Below, piece after piece: positions 28,460 to 38,459 of a stretch of DNA of 64,000 bases. Position 1 is the stretch's first letter, and each line of letters begins with the position of its first letter. The notes under the pieces were generated by a model that was not told the origin of the DNA, made no database searches, and worked only from the letters and a program-made list of their open reading frames with translations. This stretch comes from a virus. Its lineage: Duplodnaviria > Caudoviricetes. Location: the IMG/VR virus record IMGVR_UViG_3300032007_000010, one strand, 5' to 3'. A program made the position numbers and the translations under genes.

Positions 28460-28909
28460 ATGAGCGAAGGCTCCATCAATAAGACAGGCTCCATCGTCAC
28501 CTCGGGCAATGACCGTGGCAACTACTCGTCCACGCTCTCCGAAGATGCCCTCGCCGCCATCCGCGCCTCGAGTGGTTCCTCCGATGATTCTGGTTCCGGT
28601 GACTCTACTTCTCCAACCGGCGATGCATACTGGTCCTGCGGTCATCCGAAGACCATCGATCATCGGCACCTCGGCAAGATCGCCATGGGCAAAAAGTTTG
28701 AGATCAATGGAAGCACCGTGAACTCGACCTATGGTGAGTGGGTTGCCAACCTCGATCTGCTCGTGTCCAAGGGATACATCAACGAGTGCATGAAGGTTTC
28801 TTTTTTGCAGCTCAACCTCTACAATCGCGATCATGCGACCGTCGAGGATCCGGATGGTGAGCCCGAGACTCCGTCTCCGATCCGCTGGTGGCCATACTTC
28901 ACAACCTGA
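28460..28909 (+). CDS. Hypothetical late protein
   Basis: GACA-N6-TA at 28406, AAGGAG RBS. Confidence 0.6.
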   Translation: MSEGSINKTGSIVTSGNDRGNYSSTLSEDALAAIRASSGSSDDSGSGDSTSPTGDAYWSCGHPKTIDHRHLGKIAMGKKFEINGSTVNSTYGEWVANLDLLVSKGYINECMKVSFLQLNLYNRDHATVEDPDGEPETPSPIRWWPYFTT

Positions 28910-29013
28910 ACACGCAGTCCCCTCCCGAGATGGGAGGGGAACTCTGTCCTTTCAATCCGGAATCAACTCGACATTTCTATAATCATAATGAATCAAAGGA
29001 TGTGATGATGAAC

Positions 29014-32000
29014 ATGGCCAGAGCCCTTGGACTCTTTGCAAACCTGCTTGACGTGGACAAGTTTGTGTCGATCAATCGACTCCAGAGCTGCGACAATCCG
29101 GTCTACATCGACCGCAACGCGCCGACCGCAGACGGTGTTTTGTCCTATGAGATCTTCGGATCGTCAACCTTCGAACGCCAGAATCGCATGGCATACATCG
29201 ACCTTTCTCCGCATCACTATATGACGCCGCTGGCCGCGGCGACTCTCAATTCATACGATCGAACCCTCAACAAGATACTCTATTCCCAGGGGCGCTACCG
29301 CTTCGAGGATGGGAAGCTCATCGAAGATTTCGTAAATGGTGAATCTGGTCCAGATTTTCTCTATGAGATATGGGGGAAAGTTAAGGTCAAGGACAAGGAG
29401 ACCATCACCACCAAGGAGGTCCAGAAATTCTTCGAGGTGCCGAGGGAACAGCTATTCATCGATAAATTTCCGATCATTCCGGCCTTCTATCGCGATCTCA
29501 ATGTGTCTGGTGAGGGTGCCTACATCAAGAAGAGCTCCAACGTGATCAACTCGCAATATTCATCCATGATTGCCTACACGAAGACGCTGCGCAAATACAC
29601 CGATACCTTCGGTCACATGGCCAACCTCACCCAGAGTCGCATCCAGTCCGTCATGGTCGATATCTACAATGCACTCATGGTCCAGCAGGTCAAGGGCAAA
29701 CCCTCAAAGTTTGGACTTATCCGGAGAGCCATGCAGGGAAAGAATGTCAACTATTCCGCACGTCTGGTCATATCGTCTCCGATCCTTCAGAGATCCTCTT
29801 ATCGTGACGTGATGGTGAAGTTCGGTACGGCTGTGGTGCCACTGGCCTATACGATCACATGTTTCTTCCCGTTTGTTGTTCATCACATGAAGCGCTTCTT
29901 CGATCAGGAATTCTTGCAGGGTGGTAAATATCCGTATCTCGACGATCAAAAACAGCTCAGATATACCACCATCACGCGGTCCTATTCGGAGAATGAAATC
30001 ACCGATATGATCACACACTATCTCAATGTTCCGGCGGATCGTCACAACACCGTGCTTACTCCGGAGGATGTGCAGGGAAGACGCTTCCCCATGCTCATCA
30101 CCGGGAAGTTCGGTCAGGAAAACACCACGATCACGCGCCTGGCAACGATCACCGATATTCTCTACATCGTTGCCAAGATTGCCACCGAGGATAAGCATGT
30201 GTTCATCACACGCTATCCACTCGACAACTACAATGGTCAATGGCCTGGCAGAGTCGAGATTAGCACCACGGTGCGTACGACTCCCGCCATCATCGGAAAC
30301 AAATACTATCCATTCTTTCCGATATGTGAGGGCGATCCTGCCAACAACTTCATCGATACTCTTCAGTTTAGCAACACCATGCTCGGTGCCATGAACGGGG
30401 ATTACGAGATGACAGTGACTCTTCATAGTCCCCTGCGGGAGCGATCCCGTAAGAACAAATCAGTGAACGCTTCACAAGCGGTGTGGGCGCAAGCCTGCTA
30501 ACGGTTTCACTCATAATAAGTCGGGACCAGAGAGTCGTTCAGCCTGGTCACACCAAACCGATGAATGCGGTGACTAAGAGAGCCTGAAGCCTCCGACGAG
30601 GCCATATGGGAATACCGTGCCAATAACCGGATGGGAACGTCCGGGGACGGGTGTAGAGGCCATGGGTTTAATCCCATTAGGATCCGGTTGCGGCCGGACA
30701 CCGAAGTGCTGAGCCTCGGAGAGCAACGGAACCCCGAGGAAAAGAGATGGTCCGGAGTCAGATTAAATCACGCAGATCAATGGTAGGAAGATTCCACTCT
30801 TCACAGAATATATTAACATCAATAAGACCCTGTCGATATCTAACAAGACTCTTCTTTGATAAATTATTACGTGAGGTGCTATGAAGCTTAGCATAAACAA
30901 CTTCTTCTGCGCGCTTACGTCGCTTATTGGCATTCAATTCAAAGAAAAGGTATTGTTCTACTCGCTTTCCAGTCTTCATTGACCTGGATATGTGTGATCT
31001 ATCTTTTGATAGGTATTGACCGGCAGATTTTTTACTGAGTACGACCCAGGTTCCTTTGGTATCTGTATCATACATTATTATCGGGTCTGATTTAGTAAAG
31101 TTCATTATCATCTGTGTACGCTTATCGGTTCCACGTTGAATCGGTGTCATTTTACTATGCCACTGCTTCGACAGCGTATTGTATCCATATCTCGGGTTAT
31201 CTGTTTTGAATTTTGCAATATAATGAGCTTCTCTATCTGCTCGATAATCTTTGTTGAGAAGTCGTACATCGTTATATTCTGATTCGAGAATAATAGGTAC
31301 AAAACATTCTGAACCGATTTGATGTATCGGTGAGTTTGAATCAGTCTTGTGTTCTGTGAGCCTTCTGAGTACATTACCAGATTCGCCTATATACTTCATA
31401 CCATTGACAGTATTGTACAGCATATAGACACCCGCGAAACTTTTGAGCTTACCCATCTAATAATACCACCTTTCTATACGGTATCTCAGTAAATATATGT
31501 TGTACAGTTCATTTAATACGTGACATCGTATGACGGAGTTGACGCCAGGCAAGGTGTCTGTTCGAGGAATGAAATGAGGAAGTAACGTTCCGAAGCATTC
31601 CCTCTAATATCCGGGCAATGGAGCTGGTGACAGCTCGGTTGTAAGACCGGTGAAGTCGCGTCTCGAGCGCGGGAGTCAGATCGACATGGTGAGGAACACG
31701 AACATCCTCACGGATGGCTGGACTTGGACGAGTAGTCTTGTCTCTGTTGCGAAAGTCCTCTTTGGCTCATGGGGCCAATGCTACAGACCAGTCATGTAAT
31801 AGGATGCACCTAAATCGATCTTATGATAGAACAGATGCAACCTGGGAGATCTCATTGTTCCAAATGAACCATGAGAAGTCGGAGGGGTCATAGTACCGAT
31901 GAAGTCGCCAATCACGATGGAGGGAAGGACCCTAGCGGGTGATGTTTATCACCCGGTGAAAGCCGAATATGGGGAAACTCGTACGTTCGGTTTGGCCAGA

Positions 32001-32260
32001 GGAAAGACCAGGAGGGAAGCCGGCTGGTTATACATCTGGAACACACTGTATCTCTGCGTCCAGTTTTTACCAAGGAAGCCAATGCCGAATGCGAAGAACG
32101 TATCAAGAGCATTGCCTACATCCTCAATATCGAGGGTGAAAACATGCGTGAAATGAGCAGAGATTTTAGTCTATGCTGCTACAATCTCACGGTTCCATTC
32201 GGTGACATGCCTATCAGGCTGGCAGATGTCAATGCGACAAAACCAAAGTATTCCATATGA
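29014..32260 (+). CDS. Phage multisubunit RNA polymerase beta' N-terminal subunit, spliced: join(29014..30402,31529..31538,32043..32260), about 538 aa
   Basis: GVLSYEIFG..RMAYIDL, GKNVNYSARLVI, RYP. Splicing gives MNGD|YDG(G|AC)TV = NGDYDGDT, the catalytic DxDGD motif, and an open frame to TGA at 32260. The start could be 29005, 29008 or 29014. Confidence 0.88.
30403..31528 (+). ncRNA. Group I intron in RNAP beta' (1126 nt) containing an antisense homing endonuclease
   Basis: P1 GGGGAT/GTCCCC (U-G at 30402), P10 TCATA/TATGA, terminal G31528, P7 GAGGCCA/TGGTCC. 96 nt are identical to nrdD intron 2. Confidence 0.88.
30758..31456 (-). CDS. GIY-YIG homing endonuclease (intron-encoded, antisense)
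   Basis: AGVYMLYNTVNGMKYIGES..RLTEH..REAHYI..GYN. AT-rich, with its own RBS (AAGGTGG). Confidence 0.85.
   Translation of the reverse strand: MGKLKSFAGVYMLYNTVNGMKYIGESGNVLRRLTEHKTDSNSPIHQIGSECFVPIILESEYNDVRLLNKDYRADREAHYIAKFKTDNPRYGYNTLSKQWHSKMTPIQRGTDKRTQMIMNFTKSDPIIMYDTDTKGTWVVLSKKSAGQYLSKDRSHISRSMKTGKRVEQYLFFELNANKRRKRAEEVVYAKLHSTSRNNLSKKSLVRYRQGLIDVNIFCEEWNLPTIDLRDLI
31539..32042 (+). ncRNA. ORF-less group II intron (504 nt) in RNAP beta'
   Basis: Domain V AAGCCGAATATGGGGAAACTCGTACGTTCGGTTT (~31959-31993). Domain III-like GAGAAGTCGGAGGGGTCATAGTACCGATGAAG...GGAAGGACCCT. 3' end AC. EBS1 CTCTGTT (31742-31748) pairs with exon GACGGAG. Confidence 0.85.
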
Positions 32261-32270
32261 TACACATCAA

Positions 32271-32294
32271 TCCCCTCCCGATCCTGGGAGGGGA
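32271..32294 (+). terminator. CCCTCCC/GGGAGGG hairpin family terminator, representative copy
   Basis: Same stem at 15151, 28918, 48987, 49553, 54511, 55837. Confidence 0.7.
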
Positions 32295-32357
32295 TTTTCA
32301 TTTCACATTTCACGACGACATTTTTATAATGTGAAATGAAAAGAGGAGCTTTCCTTC

Positions 32358-35300
32358 ATGCCTAACATCTGGGTATCCACGGATCTTCATCTGTGGAATA
32401 ATTACACCAAAAAACATTCGCGTCCCTTCCGCAGCGAACGTGAGTTCAAGGAATTGAGGGATGCCTACGCCGAGATCGGAGAATCCGACATTTGGATTTT
32501 CCTCGGAGATCTATGTGACGAACCAACATCACACCGAGAGGAGCTCGGTGACTTCATCCGCAGCATCAACGGTCATCGCATACTCGTCAAGGGGAACCAT
32601 GATGTGCAGACTGATGAGTTCTATCACAGCATCGGCTTCGAATATGTCTGTGATATCTGCGAATATCACGACCTGGTGTTCTCGCACCAGCGTCTCAGGG
32701 TCAGCCCGAACTACATCAATATCCATGGTGATGATCATCTTGAAAAGCACAGACTAAACGATGGATGCCACATCAACGTCTATGCCGATGATCTCGTCGG
32801 CAAACCGATCATGCTCGATGAGCTCCTCGATCTGAGCGGTGCGATCTCCCAGGATCTCGATGCCAAGGATCATCAGATGACCAACACCAAGGGCTGGTCA
32901 TACCCGGATCCCTCGGTGTTGAACCGAGAGGATGGGAAACCGATCGTCCTCGATCTCTGTCTCCTCATCAAACCGTATCCGATGGATGAATCCGTCGATG
33001 AGTGCGATTCCGAGGACGACTACGAGGATCGAATCCTCGACGAGATCCTCTTCCAGGATGTGGAACAGACCAAAGATTTCGAAACCGACGATCACAAAGA
33101 TGAAAAGAAGCCTCATCGGATCCATGGCAAGAATGATGTGGTGGCCGAACGTCCAACCTCCATGGATGATGGTGAGGTGTGTGTTGACGAATCCATCGAT
33201 GGTCTTGCTGACATCTTCAACGAGGCCTTTGGTCACCTCACACAGTATTACCGCGTTGCTCCCGGCAACATGGATGGCGAGACGGTTCACCCGTCCATTC
33301 CTCAAAACTACTTCACCAAGCACGGCTACGAAGACAATGAGACTCCGAGGATATGCTTTTCGACTTCGATCGGCGGATGCCTCACGGCTCTTTCGCGCAA
33401 TCTCACCGACGAGATTCTCTATGTGCATGTGCCAGAGGAACTTCCTCCAGGATGTACCATATATCACCCCACCACGGCACAGGTTCCAGATTGCAAGCTC
33501 ACCGGTGAGGTCTGGCTTGACAAACCGTGCAAACTCTCGTGCATCGGCAAGATCAAGTGTCATCCGACCAGAGGAGTCGGCAAGAAGTTTAGATACGGTG
33601 ATGGTCGAATCGCAACGCTCTACAGCTGGATGTTCGAGTGGCTCGAGCGCTATGACCAGAAGAAGGAAAAGAAGCCGACCAACGAATCGGTCGAACTCAT
33701 CGACGAGGCGGCAAGAACTCGCAGTCTCTGGCGCGATAAGCTCTTCGGCGGAAGGTTGTTTGGCCGTCTGGCTTCGAATCTCTTCGTCAAGGTGACAATC
33801 GAAGATGGACACATCGAGATCCGTGGCATCAACTGCAACCTCTTGCTCCAGCGCATCAAGGAGAAATATGCCGAGGGCAAACTCCGCTACATCTTTGAGT
33901 GCAAATACAACGAGAAATCGTGGAAGGCATTCCAGGCAAAGAAAATCTCTCGTGGGCAAATGAAGATAGACTACGTCTATGCGCCGGAATTTTTCTGTCT
34001 AGAGTTTGTCACGTTGTTTAGAGAGCTTGGCGAAGCCTACGGTGATCGTTCCTATCTGCACATCGCCGAACTCATCTATGAAAATAGCTGGCTTTCGCAC
34101 GCGGATGAGATACGGGTCGACGATCTCAATCTCGAACCGCTCGGTTCCATTCGTCTTGAGCTTCTCGATCATCAGGTCGAGTTCATCCGCCAGTGGAATC
34201 AACTCAAGGCGCAGCTCAACCTCAATGGATATGTGCTCGCTTTCCAACCGGGCAAGGGAAAGACTCTCACCGCGGTTGGGCTGGCCCAGTGTCTGCACGC
34301 AAAACGCATCTACATCGTTTGCCCGAACAACCTCAAGGATAACTGGGCCCTCGAGCTAAGAAAATATTTTCAACGATACCAAAATATGAGAACTTGGATG
34401 GACGAGGTTTGTATTCTCGGCACGCCCAACGCCAAGCCCGAGACCGCGCGCTGGATCATCACGAACAATGAAAATATCAAGCTCATGCAGGCCGTTGCAG
34501 AGAATGATCCCGATGCGATGCTGATTCTCGACGAGTCTCACAATTTCCGCAACTACACCGGTGGTCGTGCGCAGGAGCTCTTCAAGCTCGCCGACACGAT
34601 CGGTTCGCACAACGTGCTCTGCATCTCTGCCACACCGATCAAAGCCGCACCGGCCGAAATTACTCCGGTGTTGAGGCTCATTGACCCCACCTTCACGGAC
34701 GAGGCGGCTTCCATGTACAGTCGCTGTTTCAGTCTCAACGAGACCGAGGCCATGAGCCTTGTGGCCACACGCTTTGGTAAGGTCATATACAGACCGCTCG
34801 ATGTCAATGTCCAACTTCCACCCAAGAATGAGCATGTGCTCGAGTTCTCGGCCGCACAGGAATCTCGCTACTACCTCAGCACCGTGCACGACGAGATCAT
34901 TGCCGATTTCAAGACTCGCCACGGCCAATGGGTCAAAGAATCCCGTGATGATATGGAATGGTTCCAGCAGACCGTGAGAACCTATTCTGATACCGATCGT
35001 CGCACCACAAATGGATATCTCGGATGGGTTATCTGGAGCTCCAATTCGCTGCGCAACGGTGGTGGAGAGGATTACCATGAACTCACGGTGGAGGAATACA
35101 TGCACTTCCTCGAGGACCATGTGCTCAACAACAAATGGTGCATCGGTGAGGATCGCAATCGGCTCATTGAACTGGAGCTCACCTTCCGCAAGGCGGCCAA
35201 GGTCTCCATGGGCAAGGCCATCGGGTCTATCCTTCCTCCGCGTCGCAACGAACTCTACACAAAACTCTTTCGTGAAAACACCGACCAGATTGCCGAGATG

Positions 35301-38300
35301 ATCCGAAATCGCACCAAGAAGACCATCATTTTCTCTACGATGGTGCCGGTTGTCAATGTCATCGCCGCCGGTCTCAATGGACTCGGTATCGGAACCGTGA
35401 AGATCACCGGCGAAACCAAGGACAGACTCTCCACACTCACCAAATTCAAGGAAGATCCTAGCACGCTGGTCATGGTGGCCACCTCCCAGTCACTCGGAGT
35501 GGGTGTTACTCTCACCGAAGCATCTCAGCTCTTCTACTTCGGTACACCCTGGAGATCCACCGACTATGAGCAGGCCTCCGATCGCATCTGGCGCATCGGC
35601 CAGACCGACCCAGTGGATATCTACACGGTGAAGATGAAATCCAAGGAGAAGAACCTCTCCGACCGCATGCAGGATATCCTCGACTGGTCTGCGCGCATGT
35701 TCGGCGTTGCCGTGGATGGTCAGGAACAACAGGAGCTCGTCGAGGCCGTGAACTATGTGCGCTACGTGGATCCCCATGTATGGGAACCCACCGAGGAATA
35801 TCTGGTCGAGAGCATGGTGAAGAGTGTTCCGGACATCTACTACAACAAGGAAGCCTTCGACAAGGGTGAGATCAATCTATGCTTCATCACCGGGCATTCG
35901 GGATCTGGCAAGTCCACCATGGGGAAATCCATGGAATCGAATGATAAGTCCAAGAAAACAGACTGGATCAACATGGATGATTGTCAGGTGGTGGCCGAGA
36001 AGTTCACCATGGACAACCTCAGAGAGTATTCGGGCCTTATCTACAGCTTCTTCGCCGGTCCTGGCAAGGACTTCTACATCAATAACTCCGACGAGCAGTA
36101 TGCCGAACTCTGTCGAAAGCAGCACATCGGAAACGAGGAGGGCGCCTACGAGAAAGCTCTGTTCACCAGATTTGTGGACTACGCGATCACCTATGCCAAC
36201 TCACACAAAGATCAACGATTCGTGCTCGAGGGAATCTGGATGTTTCTCTTCATCGAACCCGGAAAGCTCAAAGACTATGCGGTCTACATCAAGGGGACAT
36301 CCGCTCTGCTATCCAAGTGGAGAGCGGATCGACGTGACATTGCCAATGATGTTAGAAGCGAGAAGGGTGCGGTGAACAAGGTCAAGCGCCTGGCCAAGGA
36401 TATTGTCATGGCCAATCGTCGCAGCAGCTATCTCAGCTACAAGGATTTCGACAAGAAAATCACCGCCTGGCAGAATTACTATGGTCCTCTGGCAACGAAG
36501 CAACTGAACGAAGAAACCATAGAGATTCCGGCCGACACACCGGTGCATATTCTTGACATGAACGACTTCCATCGCATTGCTCGCGATTATGACGCCAGAG
36601 TGCGCCCCATCATCCAGGGTGATCCGATCATCAATGAGAGTACCAACAATGATGTGCGAGACATCAAGACCATCATCTCTAATCTCTCCAAGGAAGAGTC
36701 TGATCATGTCGGAGGCGGTTATTGGGTTGAATCGGATCATGTTATCTATCGCAAGATCGAACGGATCGATTCTAGCCCGGTAGCATTCATCGATGTGTAT
36801 TTGCTTCCGAAGTTCCCGAGAAAGGGGCTCGTGGTACTAGCGGTATCCAAGGATGCTCGCGGCAAGGGAATCGGGAAGAAACTGGTTGCTGGAGCCATCT
36901 CAGCGCTGAAATCCAGCAAAGATATCGATGCCCTGCGCTGGCTCGCGGATAACGACAATGAGGTCAGTCTAAAGATGGCGGTGGCCTGTGGTTTTGTCAA
37001 GACGAAGGTGATGAAGAGCGAGACTGAATTCATATATCAGCTCCACGAACCGATGTCTGAAGATGCGGCGGATCTTAGGGGTTATACTCGTGAGGAACAG
37101 GAGGACTACGCCAAGAAACATGGTATCAAATCCCCTGGTCATGATGTGGAGGCCGACAAGAAGATCAAGGAGTATGAGGATCCGGAGGATAAGCAGCGCA
37201 AACGTTATCAGCAGCAGCTTGACAGTCTCAAGAAGGCACGCAGGGTGAAGAAACACAAGCGTCGCGTGCGCAAGGTCAAGGAATTTTTCGGAATCGGATC
37301 GAAGGACCAGAAGAATACGTCACAGACCCAGAACAAGAATGAGGATGTGACCATGACTGTTCCGGGCAATCGAGGCGAGAACAATTACTTCGACAAGGCT
37401 CTCGCCAACGAGGCGGCGGTTGCATTGCCGGTCAATATCAAGTTCTCGACAAAGCCAGCCACAGATACCACACTCACGTATGGTTTCGTGCTGCTCACCA
37501 GAGAATATATTGGTTATTCCTCGACTTGTCAGCTCAGCAACGGATTTATTATTTCGGCCAAGGATGGAAGCGTTGCACGCCAACTCTACGATATTCGTCC
37601 GGACGGAAATAAGTGGTTTACCATCCACATGGTCCTTCTCACCACCGATGAACTTCGGTGTCTTCGTGATCGTCTCGAGGATTGTCTGTCCCAGAAGGTA
37701 AAACTATCCATCAATGAGAAACTCCTTGATAACGCCGTGGACGAAACCGATGACGATGGCATAGACTTTGTCAAGGGATTCATTGGAGCACTCATCGGTG
37801 CTAACTGTGAAGCCATCCCGGTGTTCGGAGGTCGTGGAAATACGACTAACGTATACTCACCCTTGCACATGTCATCCAGAGCCATTCTGAGACTTGCACG
37901 TCTCGCCAGGAGCAGTATGGAGGCCCGTGAGAACGGAAATTGCATGAATGCGGCCCTGAATCCCTTTGATCTATATCAGGATGACACGCTTTTATACAAA
38001 GCAAGGGTCTGTTCTGATGACGAGTGGGATCGCTACACTGAGAACATCGTGAGCCTAAAACTTCGTTTCCGCAATGGTCGCACCGTCGTCACACGTCACG
38101 AGTACCTGGTGCTGTTTAGGCGCAACGCACTCCTCCGCACCTGCTGCGATAGAGCCCTCGATGCTGAGGATCTCGCAAGGATTCGCGATGCGGTGGAGCA
38201 CTATGGATATTTCACCAACGTGCTCAATCTCTACTTCAGCCCAAACTTTGGTGGAATCCCACAGTTCGAGGATAACATCGTTGCCGCAGACATGGCCAAA

Positions 38301-38459
38301 CTCGTGGTGACGGCCAACGAAGCATTTGCCGGCTACCATCGCAAGCTCGTGGAGCGCGGCGAAACGATCAAAGAACACGGTGATGATCCGTGGATTCTGC
38401 GCTCCAAGAACCTCGTCCAACCATCGGGTGAACTCACACTGCTCGATGTTGTGCTCTGA
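32358..38459 (+). CDS. 2033-aa multidomain protein: metallophosphoesterase, ART-like domain, SNF2 helicase, P-loop kinase, GNAT acetyltransferase, unknown C-terminus
   Basis: DLH/GD/GNHD/H/HG; PRICFSTS..TGEVW; QPGKGKT, DESH, SATP, GVGVTL, QASDRIWRIGQ; GHSGSGKST; LAVSKDARGKGIG..N..S..CGF. Late promoter at 32317. Confidence 0.85.
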   Translation: MPNIWVSTDLHLWNNYTKKHSRPFRSEREFKELRDAYAEIGESDIWIFLGDLCDEPTSHREELGDFIRSINGHRILVKGNHDVQTDEFYHSIGFEYVCDICEYHDLVFSHQRLRVSPNYINIHGDDHLEKHRLNDGCHINVYADDLVGKPIMLDELLDLSGAISQDLDAKDHQMTNTKGWSYPDPSVLNREDGKPIVLDLCLLIKPYPMDESVDECDSEDDYEDRILDEILFQDVEQTKDFETDDHKDEKKPHRIHGKNDVVAERPTSMDDGEVCVDESIDGLADIFNEAFGHLTQYYRVAPGNMDGETVHPSIPQNYFTKHGYEDNETPRICFSTSIGGCLTALSRNLTDEILYVHVPEELPPGCTIYHPTTAQVPDCKLTGEVWLDKPCKLSCIGKIKCHPTRGVGKKFRYGDGRIATLYSWMFEWLERYDQKKEKKPTNESVELIDEAARTRSLWRDKLFGGRLFGRLASNLFVKVTIEDGHIEIRGINCNLLLQRIKEKYAEGKLRYIFECKYNEKSWKAFQAKKISRGQMKIDYVYAPEFFCLEFVTLFRELGEAYGDRSYLHIAELIYENSWLSHADEIRVDDLNLEPLGSIRLELLDHQVEFIRQWNQLKAQLNLNGYVLAFQPGKGKTLTAVGLAQCLHAKRIYIVCPNNLKDNWALELRKYFQRYQNMRTWMDEVCILGTPNAKPETARWIITNNENIKLMQAVAENDPDAMLILDESHNFRNYTGGRAQELFKLADTIGSHNVLCISATPIKAAPAEITPVLRLIDPTFTDEAASMYSRCFSLNETEAMSLVATRFGKVIYRPLDVNVQLPPKNEHVLEFSAAQESRYYLSTVHDEIIADFKTRHGQWVKESRDDMEWFQQTVRTYSDTDRRTTNGYLGWVIWSSNSLRNGGGEDYHELTVEEYMHFLEDHVLNNKWCIGEDRNRLIELELTFRKAAKVSMGKAIGSILPPRRNELYTKLFRENTDQIAEMIRNRTKKTIIFSTMVPVVNVIAAGLNGLGIGTVKITGETKDRLSTLTKFKEDPSTLVMVATSQSLGVGVTLTEASQLFYFGTPWRSTDYEQASDRIWRIGQTDPVDIYTVKMKSKEKNLSDRMQDILDWSARMFGVAVDGQEQQELVEAVNYVRYVDPHVWEPTEEYLVESMVKSVPDIYYNKEAFDKGEINLCFITGHSGSGKSTMGKSMESNDKSKKTDWINMDDCQVVAEKFTMDNLREYSGLIYSFFAGPGKDFYINNSDEQYAELCRKQHIGNEEGAYEKALFTRFVDYAITYANSHKDQRFVLEGIWMFLFIEPGKLKDYAVYIKGTSALLSKWRADRRDIANDVRSEKGAVNKVKRLAKDIVMANRRSSYLSYKDFDKKITAWQNYYGPLATKQLNEETIEIPADTPVHILDMNDFHRIARDYDARVRPIIQGDPIINESTNNDVRDIKTIISNLSKEESDHVGGGYWVESDHVIYRKIERIDSSPVAFIDVYLLPKFPRKGLVVLAVSKDARGKGIGKKLVAGAISALKSSKDIDALRWLADNDNEVSLKMAVACGFVKTKVMKSETEFIYQLHEPMSEDAADLRGYTREEQEDYAKKHGIKSPGHDVEADKKIKEYEDPEDKQRKRYQQQLDSLKKARRVKKHKRRVRKVKEFFGIGSKDQKNTSQTQNKNEDVTMTVPGNRGENNYFDKALANEAAVALPVNIKFSTKPATDTTLTYGFVLLTREYIGYSSTCQLSNGFIISAKDGSVARQLYDIRPDGNKWFTIHMVLLTTDELRCLRDRLEDCLSQKVKLSINEKLLDNAVDETDDDGIDFVKGFIGALIGANCEAIPVFGGRGNTTNVYSPLHMSSRAILRLARLARSSMEARENGNCMNAALNPFDLYQDDTLLYKARVCSDDEWDRYTENIVSLKLRFRNGRTVVTRHEYLVLFRRNALLRTCCDRALDAEDLARIRDAVEHYGYFTNVLNLYFSPNFGGIPQFEDNIVAADMAKLVVTANEAFAGYHRKLVERGETIKEHGDDPWILRSKNLVQPSGELTLLDVVL

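Follow-up and report, generated by a model that had tools for sequence, protein, structure and literature searches.

[quoted passage not shown]

In a rumen jumbo phage, a group I intron breaks the DYDGD codons of an RNA polymerase gene, and a group II intron breaks them again 10 bases on. How could an intact catalytic motif be obtained from a gene interrupted twice within so few bases? We addressed this question at positions 29,014 to 32,260 and their flanks in a window of 64,000 nucleotides, the whole stretch of viral DNA analysed (IMG/VR record IMGVR_UViG_3300032007_000010). The reading that we favour, with a probability of roughly 88%, is that the beta'-N gene was invaded at two recurrent homing sites within the 15 bases of DYDGD and that both introns are excised, giving a 540-aa subunit.

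Exon structure of the interrupted gene

Exon 1 (29008..30402, + strand) encodes a virion-type RNAP beta' N-terminal subunit and, by direct reading, its last codons are AAC GGG GAT, so that the product ends in ...AMNGD, the first Asp of DYDGD. Three in-frame ATGs (29005, 29008 and 29014) leave its start codon uncertain. The product matched PHROG 2986 (E 4e-49), and tblastn aligned it at 28-32% identity with beta'-N genes from AR9 (g145), LPJP1, Goe21 and Madawaska, Staphylococcus jumbo phages being among the matches; metagenomic homologues of the subunit numbered 164. A blastn search of 28888-32300 against INPHARED phages gave zero matches. Together, this homology and the DxDGD in the C-terminal region indicate, at the level of sequence, that the interrupted gene is an AR9-type virion RNAP beta'-N subunit.

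The micro-exon TATGACGGAG (10 nt, 31529..31538, + strand), identified by direct reading and by RNA contigs, codes for Tyr, Asp and Gly and contributes the opening G of the third Asp codon. Exon 3 (32043..32260, + strand) reads AC ACT GTA from 32043; its AC finishes the third Asp codon and is followed by TVSLRPVFTKEANAECEERIKS..., a frame of 71 aa that remains open until the TGA at 32258-32260. The initial annotation had implied that the frame 32045-32260 would align with the region past the motif, and the alignments agree: exon 3 matched LPJP1 residues 454-502, immediately past DYDGD (BLASTP E 2e-8), and is nearly the same as the corresponding part of intronless P0006. The uninterrupted homologues LPJP1 and P0006 read GADYDGDTLSIRGVFSAEANKE and GADYDGDTVSVRPVFTKEANAECEQRIKS, respectively, and intronless homologues follow the pattern G(A/G)D-YDGD-T(V/L)S, in which exactly four residues, YDGD, separate the counterparts of exon 1 and exon 3. 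The exon structure is therefore fixed by the homologues, and the proposed splicing would rebuild DYDGD in the beta'-N protein. The three-exon reading with its two intron classes and four splice sites, as first proposed, was borne out by homologue alignment and by RNA structure covariation, and all of the proposed coordinates for exons, introns and micro-exon hold on reading the sequence.

Past the stop codon, an inverted repeat rich in G+C, with a T run behind it (32268..32300, + strand), reads by eye as a putative intrinsic terminator. By-eye reading also found comparable hairpins 3' of the beta'-N gene in two relatives, L005 and L007.

The group I intron and its endonuclease cassette

The segment 30403..31528 (+ strand) matched the HMM of a phage-intron family (E 2e-60) and is assigned as an IA-like group I intron from this match, a consensus fold, covariation and junction rules. 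Around 35 family members were found in IMG/VR, and nearly all of them interrupt RNAP DxDGD motifs at one shared codon boundary. In the covariation analysis, 97.5% of cells were paired in the family fold, compared with 78.6% for shuffles and 32-42% for slid controls, and compensatory changes were present in all of P3 (30459-65 with 30707-13), P7 (30656-62 with 30748-53) and P8 (30715-19 with 30735-39). In this intron the compensated P7 is GGCCA with UGGUC; the G335-C512 pair under its bulged A is invariant in 16/16 sequences, and J8/7 reads GAAGAUAU. An alternative placement of the R element/P7 at GUGACUAAGAGA was rejected, since covariation puts P7 at GAGACUA with UAGUCC. The putative P4 (30501-06 with 30613-18) is a conserved helix; the conserved helices comprise ACGGUA/UACCGU, a P5-like helix next to it and a P6-like helix, with two extra hairpins where J3/4 is expected. 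The labels P4-P6 reflect what we take to be a similarity to T4 td.

The intron boundaries are predicted from pairings with the exons. In P1, GGGGAU (30397-30402) pairs with GUCCCC in the IGS (30428-33), setting U30402.G30428 at the splice site, and across the family this helix covaries with the exon (GGAGAU/GUCUCC, GCGGAU/GUCCGC, GCCGAUU/GGUCGGC). In P10, UCAUA (30423-27) pairs with UAUGA (31529-33), which are bases 1-5 of the micro-exon, and omega-G (31528) adjoins the micro-exon. Omega-G, P10 and P1-exon covariation were seen at ~20 family loci, while omega is apparently A or U, not G, in ~7 other loci, including L015, L026, L088, L129, L131 and L059. Excision of the intron would accordingly fall at 30402|30403 and 31528|31529.

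It had been anticipated that the Infernal Intron_gpI model would recognize this intron; the class assignment stood but the match did not materialize. RF00028 gave zero matches in the window, in 30250-32150 at E<=10 and in 30385-30765 alone, nothing reaching the gathering threshold, and none in 16 loci of the family, yet it does find neighbouring canonical introns (L068, 76 bits; L005, 27 bits). The miss is a limit of the model rather than a structural failure, and because of the covariation analysis we discounted the silence of RF00028 as evidence against group I. Family covariation and homology to the DNA polymerase intron of Enterococcus phage EF1, rather than Rfam, support the assignment. 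Because the Rfam model misses this family, gene calling routinely renders the genes that carry it as truncated ORFs. Of the 120 listed homologues, about 60 are without the DxDGD motif, and most of these have a called ORF that ends at the motif or within it, just as the initial annotation had said that ORF calling would overlook the arrangement.

The EF1 intron (MF001358, annotated 'Phage intron') belongs to the same RNA family (nhmmer 9e-19) and has in common with the phage RNAP intron the blocks GCUAACGGUA...UAAGAGA...AAUACCGUGC and GAAGAUAUAGUC. However, it occupies another host gene and insertion site, and it carries an HNH endonuclease on the sense strand, in a different loop. Presumably it resembles the classical SPO1-type DNA polymerase intron. 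A conserved 350-nt element in L005 and L068 was also considered as a 5' extension of the next canonical group I intron, and was rejected because on its own it is a complete intron in L061, L090, L133 and others.

Inside P9 of the group I intron lies an antisense ORF of 232 aa (30758..31456, - strand) with a Pfam GIY-YIG domain (PF01541, 1e-9) and a PHROG homing endonuclease match. DNA run X3 contains a HEG-less allele in which exactly 30763-31513 is missing (joint 30762>31514), which delimits a mobile endonuclease cassette at ~30763-31513. Both the catalytic domain and the presence/absence polymorphism of the cassette identify the product as a GIY-YIG homing endonuclease. Homologous antisense ORFs were found in L007 and L133.

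The group II intron and its excision from RNA

The initial annotation had placed a group II intron at 31539..32042, and Rfam matches, a four-sequence fold and RNA contigs all confirm it; the intron (+ strand, 504 nt) is ORF-less. RF02004 (group-II-D1D4-5) matched 31549-31683 with 66.4 bits (E 6e-12), in support of a domain I-IV architecture, and RF00029 (Intron_gpII, D5/D6) matched 31958-32031 with 45.5 bits (gathering score 40); both matches are above gathering score. D5 (31960-31993, + strand) starts AAGCCG and contains the AGC triad. D6 (31996-32039, + strand) holds the likely branch point, A32034, a bulged A placed by alignment to three homologues, and the D5/D6 fold has a z-score of -4.4. 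Homologous introns occur at the identical nucleotide position in three relatives (L132, L124 and L125), and when these were aligned and folded with the phage sequence (four sequences), compensatory changes were found in 53/116 pairs.

EBS1 (31742-31749, + strand; CUCUGUUG) pairs with IBS1 (UGACGGAG), which occupies bases 3-10 of the micro-exon and so overlaps the P10 side of the group I intron by 3 nt; P10 and IBS1 share micro-exon bases in L132 as well. The IBS1/EBS1 pairing covaries in L124, L125 and L132 (ACGGAG/CUCUGU, ACGGAG/CUCCGU and AUGGUG/CACCGU). A search for EBS2/IBS2, covering the spliced and the unspliced context, turned up no convincing pairing.

The 5' end of the intron, UUGAC, is off the GUGYG/GWYRG consensus (GWYRG for group II introns: PMC12350094), whereas its 3' end, AAC (AC), fits AY; the homologous introns begin GAGCG, GCGCG and GAGAG. 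No reverse transcriptase or maturase was found, there being no + strand ORF >59 aa within 31539-32042, and 6/20 phage group II introns are likewise ORF-less (PMC12350094). The Rfam alignment of D6 implied 11 extra 3' nucleotides relative to the homologues; this was rejected, as MAFFT/alifold aligns ...ACAUCUGGAAC| with ...CCUAUCAGCAU|. Placing the 3' splice site instead after AU 32031, AC 32033 or AC 32044 would break the frame or conflict with the RNA junction.

That junction was found in two runs, X5 and X7, of one bovine metatranscriptome (Logan contigs from a single sample, which may contain DNA). In contigs X5 rec18 and X7 rec24, TATGACGGAG is joined directly to 32043 onward. Thus, the group II intron is excised precisely from RNA, at the predicted bases, and because of this junction both of its ends are fixed despite the odd 5' end. 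The two edges of the micro-exon, 31529 and 31538, coincide exactly with starts or ends of RNA contigs, and contigs break at 31528|31529; one contig ends at 30404, the last base common to the unspliced (UAC) and spliced (UAU) forms. DNA run X3 is unbroken through the group II intron. The junction of exon 1 and micro-exon was absent from all contigs. Parts of the stretch have no RNA cover, 30340-30607 in X5 for example, and we read nothing into these gaps. Of the two junctions for which spanning RNA had been proposed as a check, that between micro-exon and exon 3 was recovered and that between exon 1 and micro-exon was not, its support being indirect; natural RNA evidence is available for one of the two cuts.

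Alternative explanations, relatives and known systems

In the favoured model, site 1, after the first Asp codon, would have received a member of a widespread phage family of group I introns, in this case with an antisense GIY-YIG cassette in P9. Site 2 splits the third Asp codon into G and AC and would have received a group II intron that is compact and ORF-less. The group I ribozyme would find its 5' site by P1 (GGGGAU with GUCCCC, U.G at the cut) and its 3' site by omega-G (31528) together with P10, which pairs with bases 1-5 of the micro-exon, while the group II ribozyme would grip bases 3-10 by EBS1 (31742-49) and release at AAC|AC. Double excision would yield a 540-aa subunit with the Mg-binding DYDGD intact, and two different self-splicing RNAs would both have to cut precisely for an active enzyme. 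Both introns probably self-splice without proteins, and there is probably no fixed order of splicing.

The introns may not be independent, however: sharing the micro-exon, one ribozyme might have to finish before the other docks, making the splicing order obligatory. The 3-nt overlap of P10 (bases 1-5) and IBS1 (bases 3-10) speaks for this, as do L005 and L007, in which the downstream P1 needs the tail of the upstream intron and the upstream P10 forms only after the downstream intron leaves. We nevertheless consider an obligatory order in this phage rather unlikely, as P10 is non-essential in most group I introns and IBS1 is independent of exon 1. Moreover, X5 rec15 ends at 31538 and both rec16 and rec18 start at 31529, a pattern of breaks that would be expected of a k=31 assembly graph holding all four intermediates, if the assembler behaves as we suppose.

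It is also conceivable that the joint of micro-exon and exon 3 reflects genomic DNA from a co-occurring strain lacking this intron, and not splicing. RNA libraries can carry DNA, so contigs there are no proof of transcription, and relatives such as L133 and L061 have alleles that lack the group II intron. Against this, the junction occurred in none of the DNA runs examined, X3 being continuous through the intron, and contigs in both RNA runs stop exactly at the first micro-exon base, which a simple intron-less allele would not produce. We regard this origin as improbable, and even under it the identity of the element would be unchanged, since the gene encodes DYDGD only once the interruptions are excised. 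Least credible, and in our estimate very improbable, is a decaying pseudogene in which the interruptions stay and the phage depends on its other RNAP genes. The non-consensus ends of the group II intron and the antisense endonuclease within the group I intron could be taken as decay, but exon 3 is open and highly conserved (TVSLRPVFTKEANAECE is nearly identical to P0006, 66% identical), the frame is restored exactly and the ribozyme helices keep compensatory changes. In addition, the phage has been recovered in 13 studies, L132 has the same architecture at 51% protein identity (group I intron, 9-nt micro-exon, group II intron), and the group II junction, TATGACGGAG|ACACTGTA, is present in RNA contigs. 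Taken together, these observations favour invasion at two homing sites followed by excision of both introns.

In other relatives just one intron of the pair is present, inserted at the identical nucleotide, and in some two group I introns are apparently 2 or 8-9 nt apart. The pattern AATGCGGTGACTAAGAGA was found in three known relatives only, plus one chance coding match (L009). In L005 and L007 an apparent 2-nt exon (AU) lies between two group I introns; P1 of the second intron (CAUGGAU with GUCCAUG) consists of the 3' tail of the first intron plus the 2-nt exon, and P10 of the first (GUCAU) matches AU+GAC solely after removal of the second.

Introns in the DxDGD motif have already been published, and so has the coexistence of the two intron classes within this gene. 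In the virion beta'-N gene g145 of AR9/PBS1 (Lavysh 2016; Merk and Eddy, NAR 2025, PMC12350094, Fig. 5A), a group I intron is reported alongside a group II intron (PMC12350094). This orthologous gene also has three exons, with the second intron annotated as splitting the motif DYD|GD. However, its middle exon is 183 nt (61 aa), compared with 10 nt here, only one intron is within the motif, and the introns, which lack a match to the HMM, belong to other families and carry sense-strand Vsr/Hef-like endonucleases. In the beta'-N gene of the Staphylococcus jumbo phage Madawaska (Korn 2021) an intron with a homing endonuclease breaks the same motif at GADFDG|, but this is a single intron of a different family, without a micro-exon. 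Membership of the AR9 and Madawaska introns in the family of 30403-31528 was considered and rejected. Mini-exons in fungal mitochondria, such as Ophiostoma rnl-576/577 (PMC12308204), similarly place one to a few nucleotides between paired self-splicing introns, and stepwise ('ratchet') splicing has been proposed for tandem group I modules there (PMC12308204); in contrast, those pairs are organellar, of one intron class each and outside any enzyme's catalytic motif. The setting is thus more familiar than the initial annotation suggested, AR9 g145 already being annotated as split at DYD|GD, and the novelty lies in a 9-10-nt micro-exon flanked by ribozymes of two classes.

In this phage, two mechanistically unrelated ribozymes would have to recognize a 9-10-nt exon correctly and at once, in a gene indispensable to the phage. 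The locus, which measures ~1.1 kb once the endonuclease is left out, is a compact natural setting in which the interplay and competition of group I and group II splicing could be studied; it includes a group II intron working with U at position 1, and it brings to light a large group I family invisible to Rfam's model. The codons of the catalytic motif of phage RNAPs appear as a homing hotspot with at least five insertion positions. We tentatively extend this, at somewhat less than even odds, to the idea that the DxDGD bases are a multi-intron hotspot where different ribozyme classes share micro-exons of 2-10 nt and may be mutually sequence-dependent, in which case L005 and L007 would provide a viral example, arisen in nature, of 'ratchet' splicing in an obligatory order.

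Division of the catalytic motif over three exons

The reading frame of exon 1 runs from about 29008 to ...ATG AAC GGG GAT at 30402, beyond which it continues as nonsense to a stop at 30501. Its product matched PHROG 2986 (E 4e-49), a family of RNA polymerase subunits, and tblastn aligned it at 28-32% identity to the N-terminal β′ subunits of multisubunit RNAPs from AR9-like jumbo phages, including the virion RNAP subunit AR9 g145. In two uninterrupted homologues, from Listeria phage LPJP1 and the metagenomic protein P0006 (66% identical), the motif region continues ...GADYDGDTLSIRGVFSAEANKE and ...GADYDGDTVSVRPVFTKEANAECEQRIKS, respectively. The frame from 32045 in the window reads TVSLRPVFTKEANAECEERIKS... 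and aligned to LPJP1 immediately after the motif (E 2e-8), indicating that exactly YDGD is missing between exon 1 and exon 3. These residues are supplied by the micro-exon TATGACGGAG (31529-31538) together with AC at 32043-44, and no alternative junction pair in this gene restored both frame and motif. The initial annotation had proposed that DYDGD is split over three exons with a 10-nt micro-exon; frame and alignment to LPJP1 and P0006 confirm this observation, and the accompanying interpretation, that two different ribozymes must splice to yield an active polymerase, is supported. Directly downstream of the gene lies a 2033-aa ORF (32358-38459) with an N-terminus that, by eye, resembles a metallophosphoesterase of the calcineurin type (GDLCDE...GNHD).

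The group II intron and its removal from RNA

The group II intron proposed at 31539-32042 was borne out by two Rfam matches above gathering score (group-II-D1D4-5 at 31549-31683, 66.4 bits; D5/D6 at 31958-32031, 45.5 bits), by covarying homologues and by an exact RNA junction. The intron contains no notable ORF and is thus ORF-less; the eight bases at the 3′ end of the micro-exon pair with its EBS1, CUCUGUUG (31742-49). Three further phage contigs (L124, L125 and L132) have homologous introns of this Rfam class inserted at the identical nucleotide, where G and AY of the third Asp codon meet, and IBS1/EBS1 covaries among these loci (ACGGAG with CUCCGU, AUGGUG with CACCGU). An alignment of the four sequences yields a fold of 116 pairs, with compensatory changes in 53, and sets the window's 3′ end ...ACAUCUGGAAC opposite the homologues' ...CCUAUCAGCAU, and because the 3′ ends align in this way the bulged branch adenosine is predicted to be A32034. 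The 5′ end, UUGAC, is unusual (homologues: GAGCG, GCGCG, GAGAG; consensus GWYRG, PMC12350094).

Ruminant gut metagenomes of 13 studies contain the stretch, as do two metatranscriptomic runs from a single bovine sample; contigs were compared over 29000-33000 for the RNA runs X5 and X7 and the bovine gut DNA run X3. One RNA contig from each run (X5 rec18, 219 nt; X7 rec24, 222 nt) consists of TATGACGGAG followed directly by 32043-32251/4. Because both join the micro-exon to 32043, the group II intron is removed exactly between 31538 and 32043, without one-base slack in the junction. In DNA run X3 this joint was absent and the sequence reads through the group II intron without a break.

Other X5 contigs terminate at the micro-exon borders: rec15 ends exactly at 31538, while rec16 (into the group II intron) and rec18 (into exon 3) both start exactly at 31529. 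If contigs in a k=31 graph share nothing but the 10-nt micro-exon, this would imply branch points on both sides of the micro-exon, and therefore, if the assembler behaved in this way, a second upstream context for the micro-exon besides the group I tail. X7 rec20 ends at 30404, the final base before the unspliced (UAC...) and spliced (UAU...) continuations diverge. Thus, of the two spliced junctions sought in the metatranscriptome, micro-exon/exon 3 was recovered and exon 1/micro-exon was found in none of the contigs of 29000-33000; since no contig joins exon 1 to the micro-exon, the support for group I excision in the window is indirect.

The group I intron family and its loop insertions

Because the Rfam model RF00028 found no match in the intron at 30403-31528, the group I assignment was tested through relatives. 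A homologous 350-nt element lies at the same place in three IMG/VR contigs (exon 1 61% identical), and a conserved-block pattern scan with an HMM gathered ~35 distinct members from phage contigs, nearly all located after the first Asp codon of the RNAP motif (N/G)(A/G)DxDGD. In ~20 members the exon ends in a U whose partner is a G in the guide sequence, which covaries with the exon; in these same members the intron-final G directly precedes the remaining bases of the x codon, with a P10 of 3-6 bp. The 16-sequence consensus fold contains P1, P3, P8, putative P4, P5 and P6 helices, and a pseudoknotted P7 (GAGACUA with UAGUCC). This P7 follows J8/7 GAAGAUAU, contains a bulged A and keeps an invariant G-C pair at the position that binds guanosine. 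In this fold 97.5% of cells are paired, compared with 78.6% in shuffles and 32-42% with slid partners, and double changes occur in 27 pairs; the window's own P7 is compensated (GGCCA with UGGUC). There are hairpins between P7 and P3′, which we take to suggest subgroup IA in Michel and Westhof's scheme, and two extra, atypical hairpins between P3 and P4. Another family member is an intron annotated 'Phage intron' that carries an HNH endonuclease and interrupts the Enterococcus phage EF1 DNA polymerase gene. In the window, P1 is formed by 30397-30402 with 30428-33 and P10 by 30423-27 with 31529-33, and omega-G is 31528. The initial assignment of a group I intron with P1, P10, P7 and terminal G agrees with the family fold and splice-site rules, and the search with the covariance model RF00028 gave no match.

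In some members DxDGD can be restored only if the last intron base is A (L015, L026, L088, L129, L131) or U (L059); these keep the invariant G-C pair in P7. L048, a member on the 187-kb contig that also carries L035, interrupts another RNAP gene behind its third Asp codon (DYDGD), and its guide sequence is adapted (GCGAU with GUCGC). Partial family HMM matches also occur elsewhere in the window, at 1798-1965 (E 1e-26) and 2681-2934 (E 3e-23), and a 96-nt block, 30563-30658, recurs at 1856-1951; this repeat accounts for the breaks between contigs and the depth of 77 seen there in run X3.

The intron carries an antisense GIY-YIG ORF of 232 aa (30758-31456). Since an allele in DNA run X3 has both introns and lacks exactly 30763-31513, the endonuclease cassette was inserted independently into the P9 loop of a ribozyme that itself measures ~375 nt; the allele is a presence/absence polymorphism of the endonuclease alone. 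Homologous antisense ORFs are present in L007 and L133. Small antisense ORFs (117-131 aa) are located in a hairpin between P3 and P4, not in P9, in L129 (5000-5395), L130 (4989-5348) and L131 (4410-4763).

Recurrence at DxDGD

The same architecture is found in L132, a contig from a different metagenome with an exon 1 51% identical to the window's: ...GAC U, a group I intron ending ...UACG, the 9-nt exon ACGACGGAG, a group II intron and AU ACG GUA..., the joined exons giving DYDGDTVSLKPVF. Other loci carry the group I intron alone (L133, L134, L130, L061, L090 and others) or the group II intron alone (L124, L125).

In place of the group II intron, L005, L006 and L007 carry a further group I intron of canonical type (RF00028 27 bits, E 8e-5). 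The frame is restored only with a 2-nt exon, AU, which appears to lie between ...CCAUGG and GAAA.... The two-intron region spans 6378-7099 in L005 and 6372-7833 in L007, relatives at 61% protein identity. In this arrangement P1 of the second intron (CAUGGAU with GUCCAUG) draws on the 3′ tail of the first, and P10 of the first (GUCAU) matches the ligated AU+GAC, which would require the downstream intron to leave before the upstream one. L133, which has a single intron, shows covariation of P10 (GUCAA with UUGAU). In a further jumbo-phage β′-N gene (L068, 3526-4260), a group I intron of the family type, with A or U rather than G as its predicted last base, is followed by an 8-9-nt exon, (U)AUGAUGGU, and then by a canonical one (RF00028 76 bits).

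Parts of this arrangement have precedents. AR9 g145 is likewise annotated with three exons; its second intron separates DYD from GD, and its middle exon encodes 61 aa. In Madawaska an intron follows GADFDG. Group II introns were reported in 20 of 29,015 curated phage genomes and ~9,200 IMG/VR contigs, with splicing lacking experimental confirmation (Merk and Eddy, NAR 2025, PMC12350094), and in fungal mitochondria organellar introns can be separated by mini-exons of one to a few nucleotides, while introns in tandem have been described as splicing stepwise (PMC12308204). Given these, what is new is a 9-10-nt exon within a catalytic motif between ribozymes of two classes, its conservation in two divergent phages (the window and L132), and evidence from natural RNA that a group II intron starting with U is excised exactly.

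DxDGD is missing in ~60 of the 120 listed metagenomic homologues (P0005-P0124), and in most of these the ORF as called ends at the motif or within it. In gut jumbo phages, interruption of DxDGD by introns is thus the rule, and β′-N is systematically mis-annotated by gene callers.
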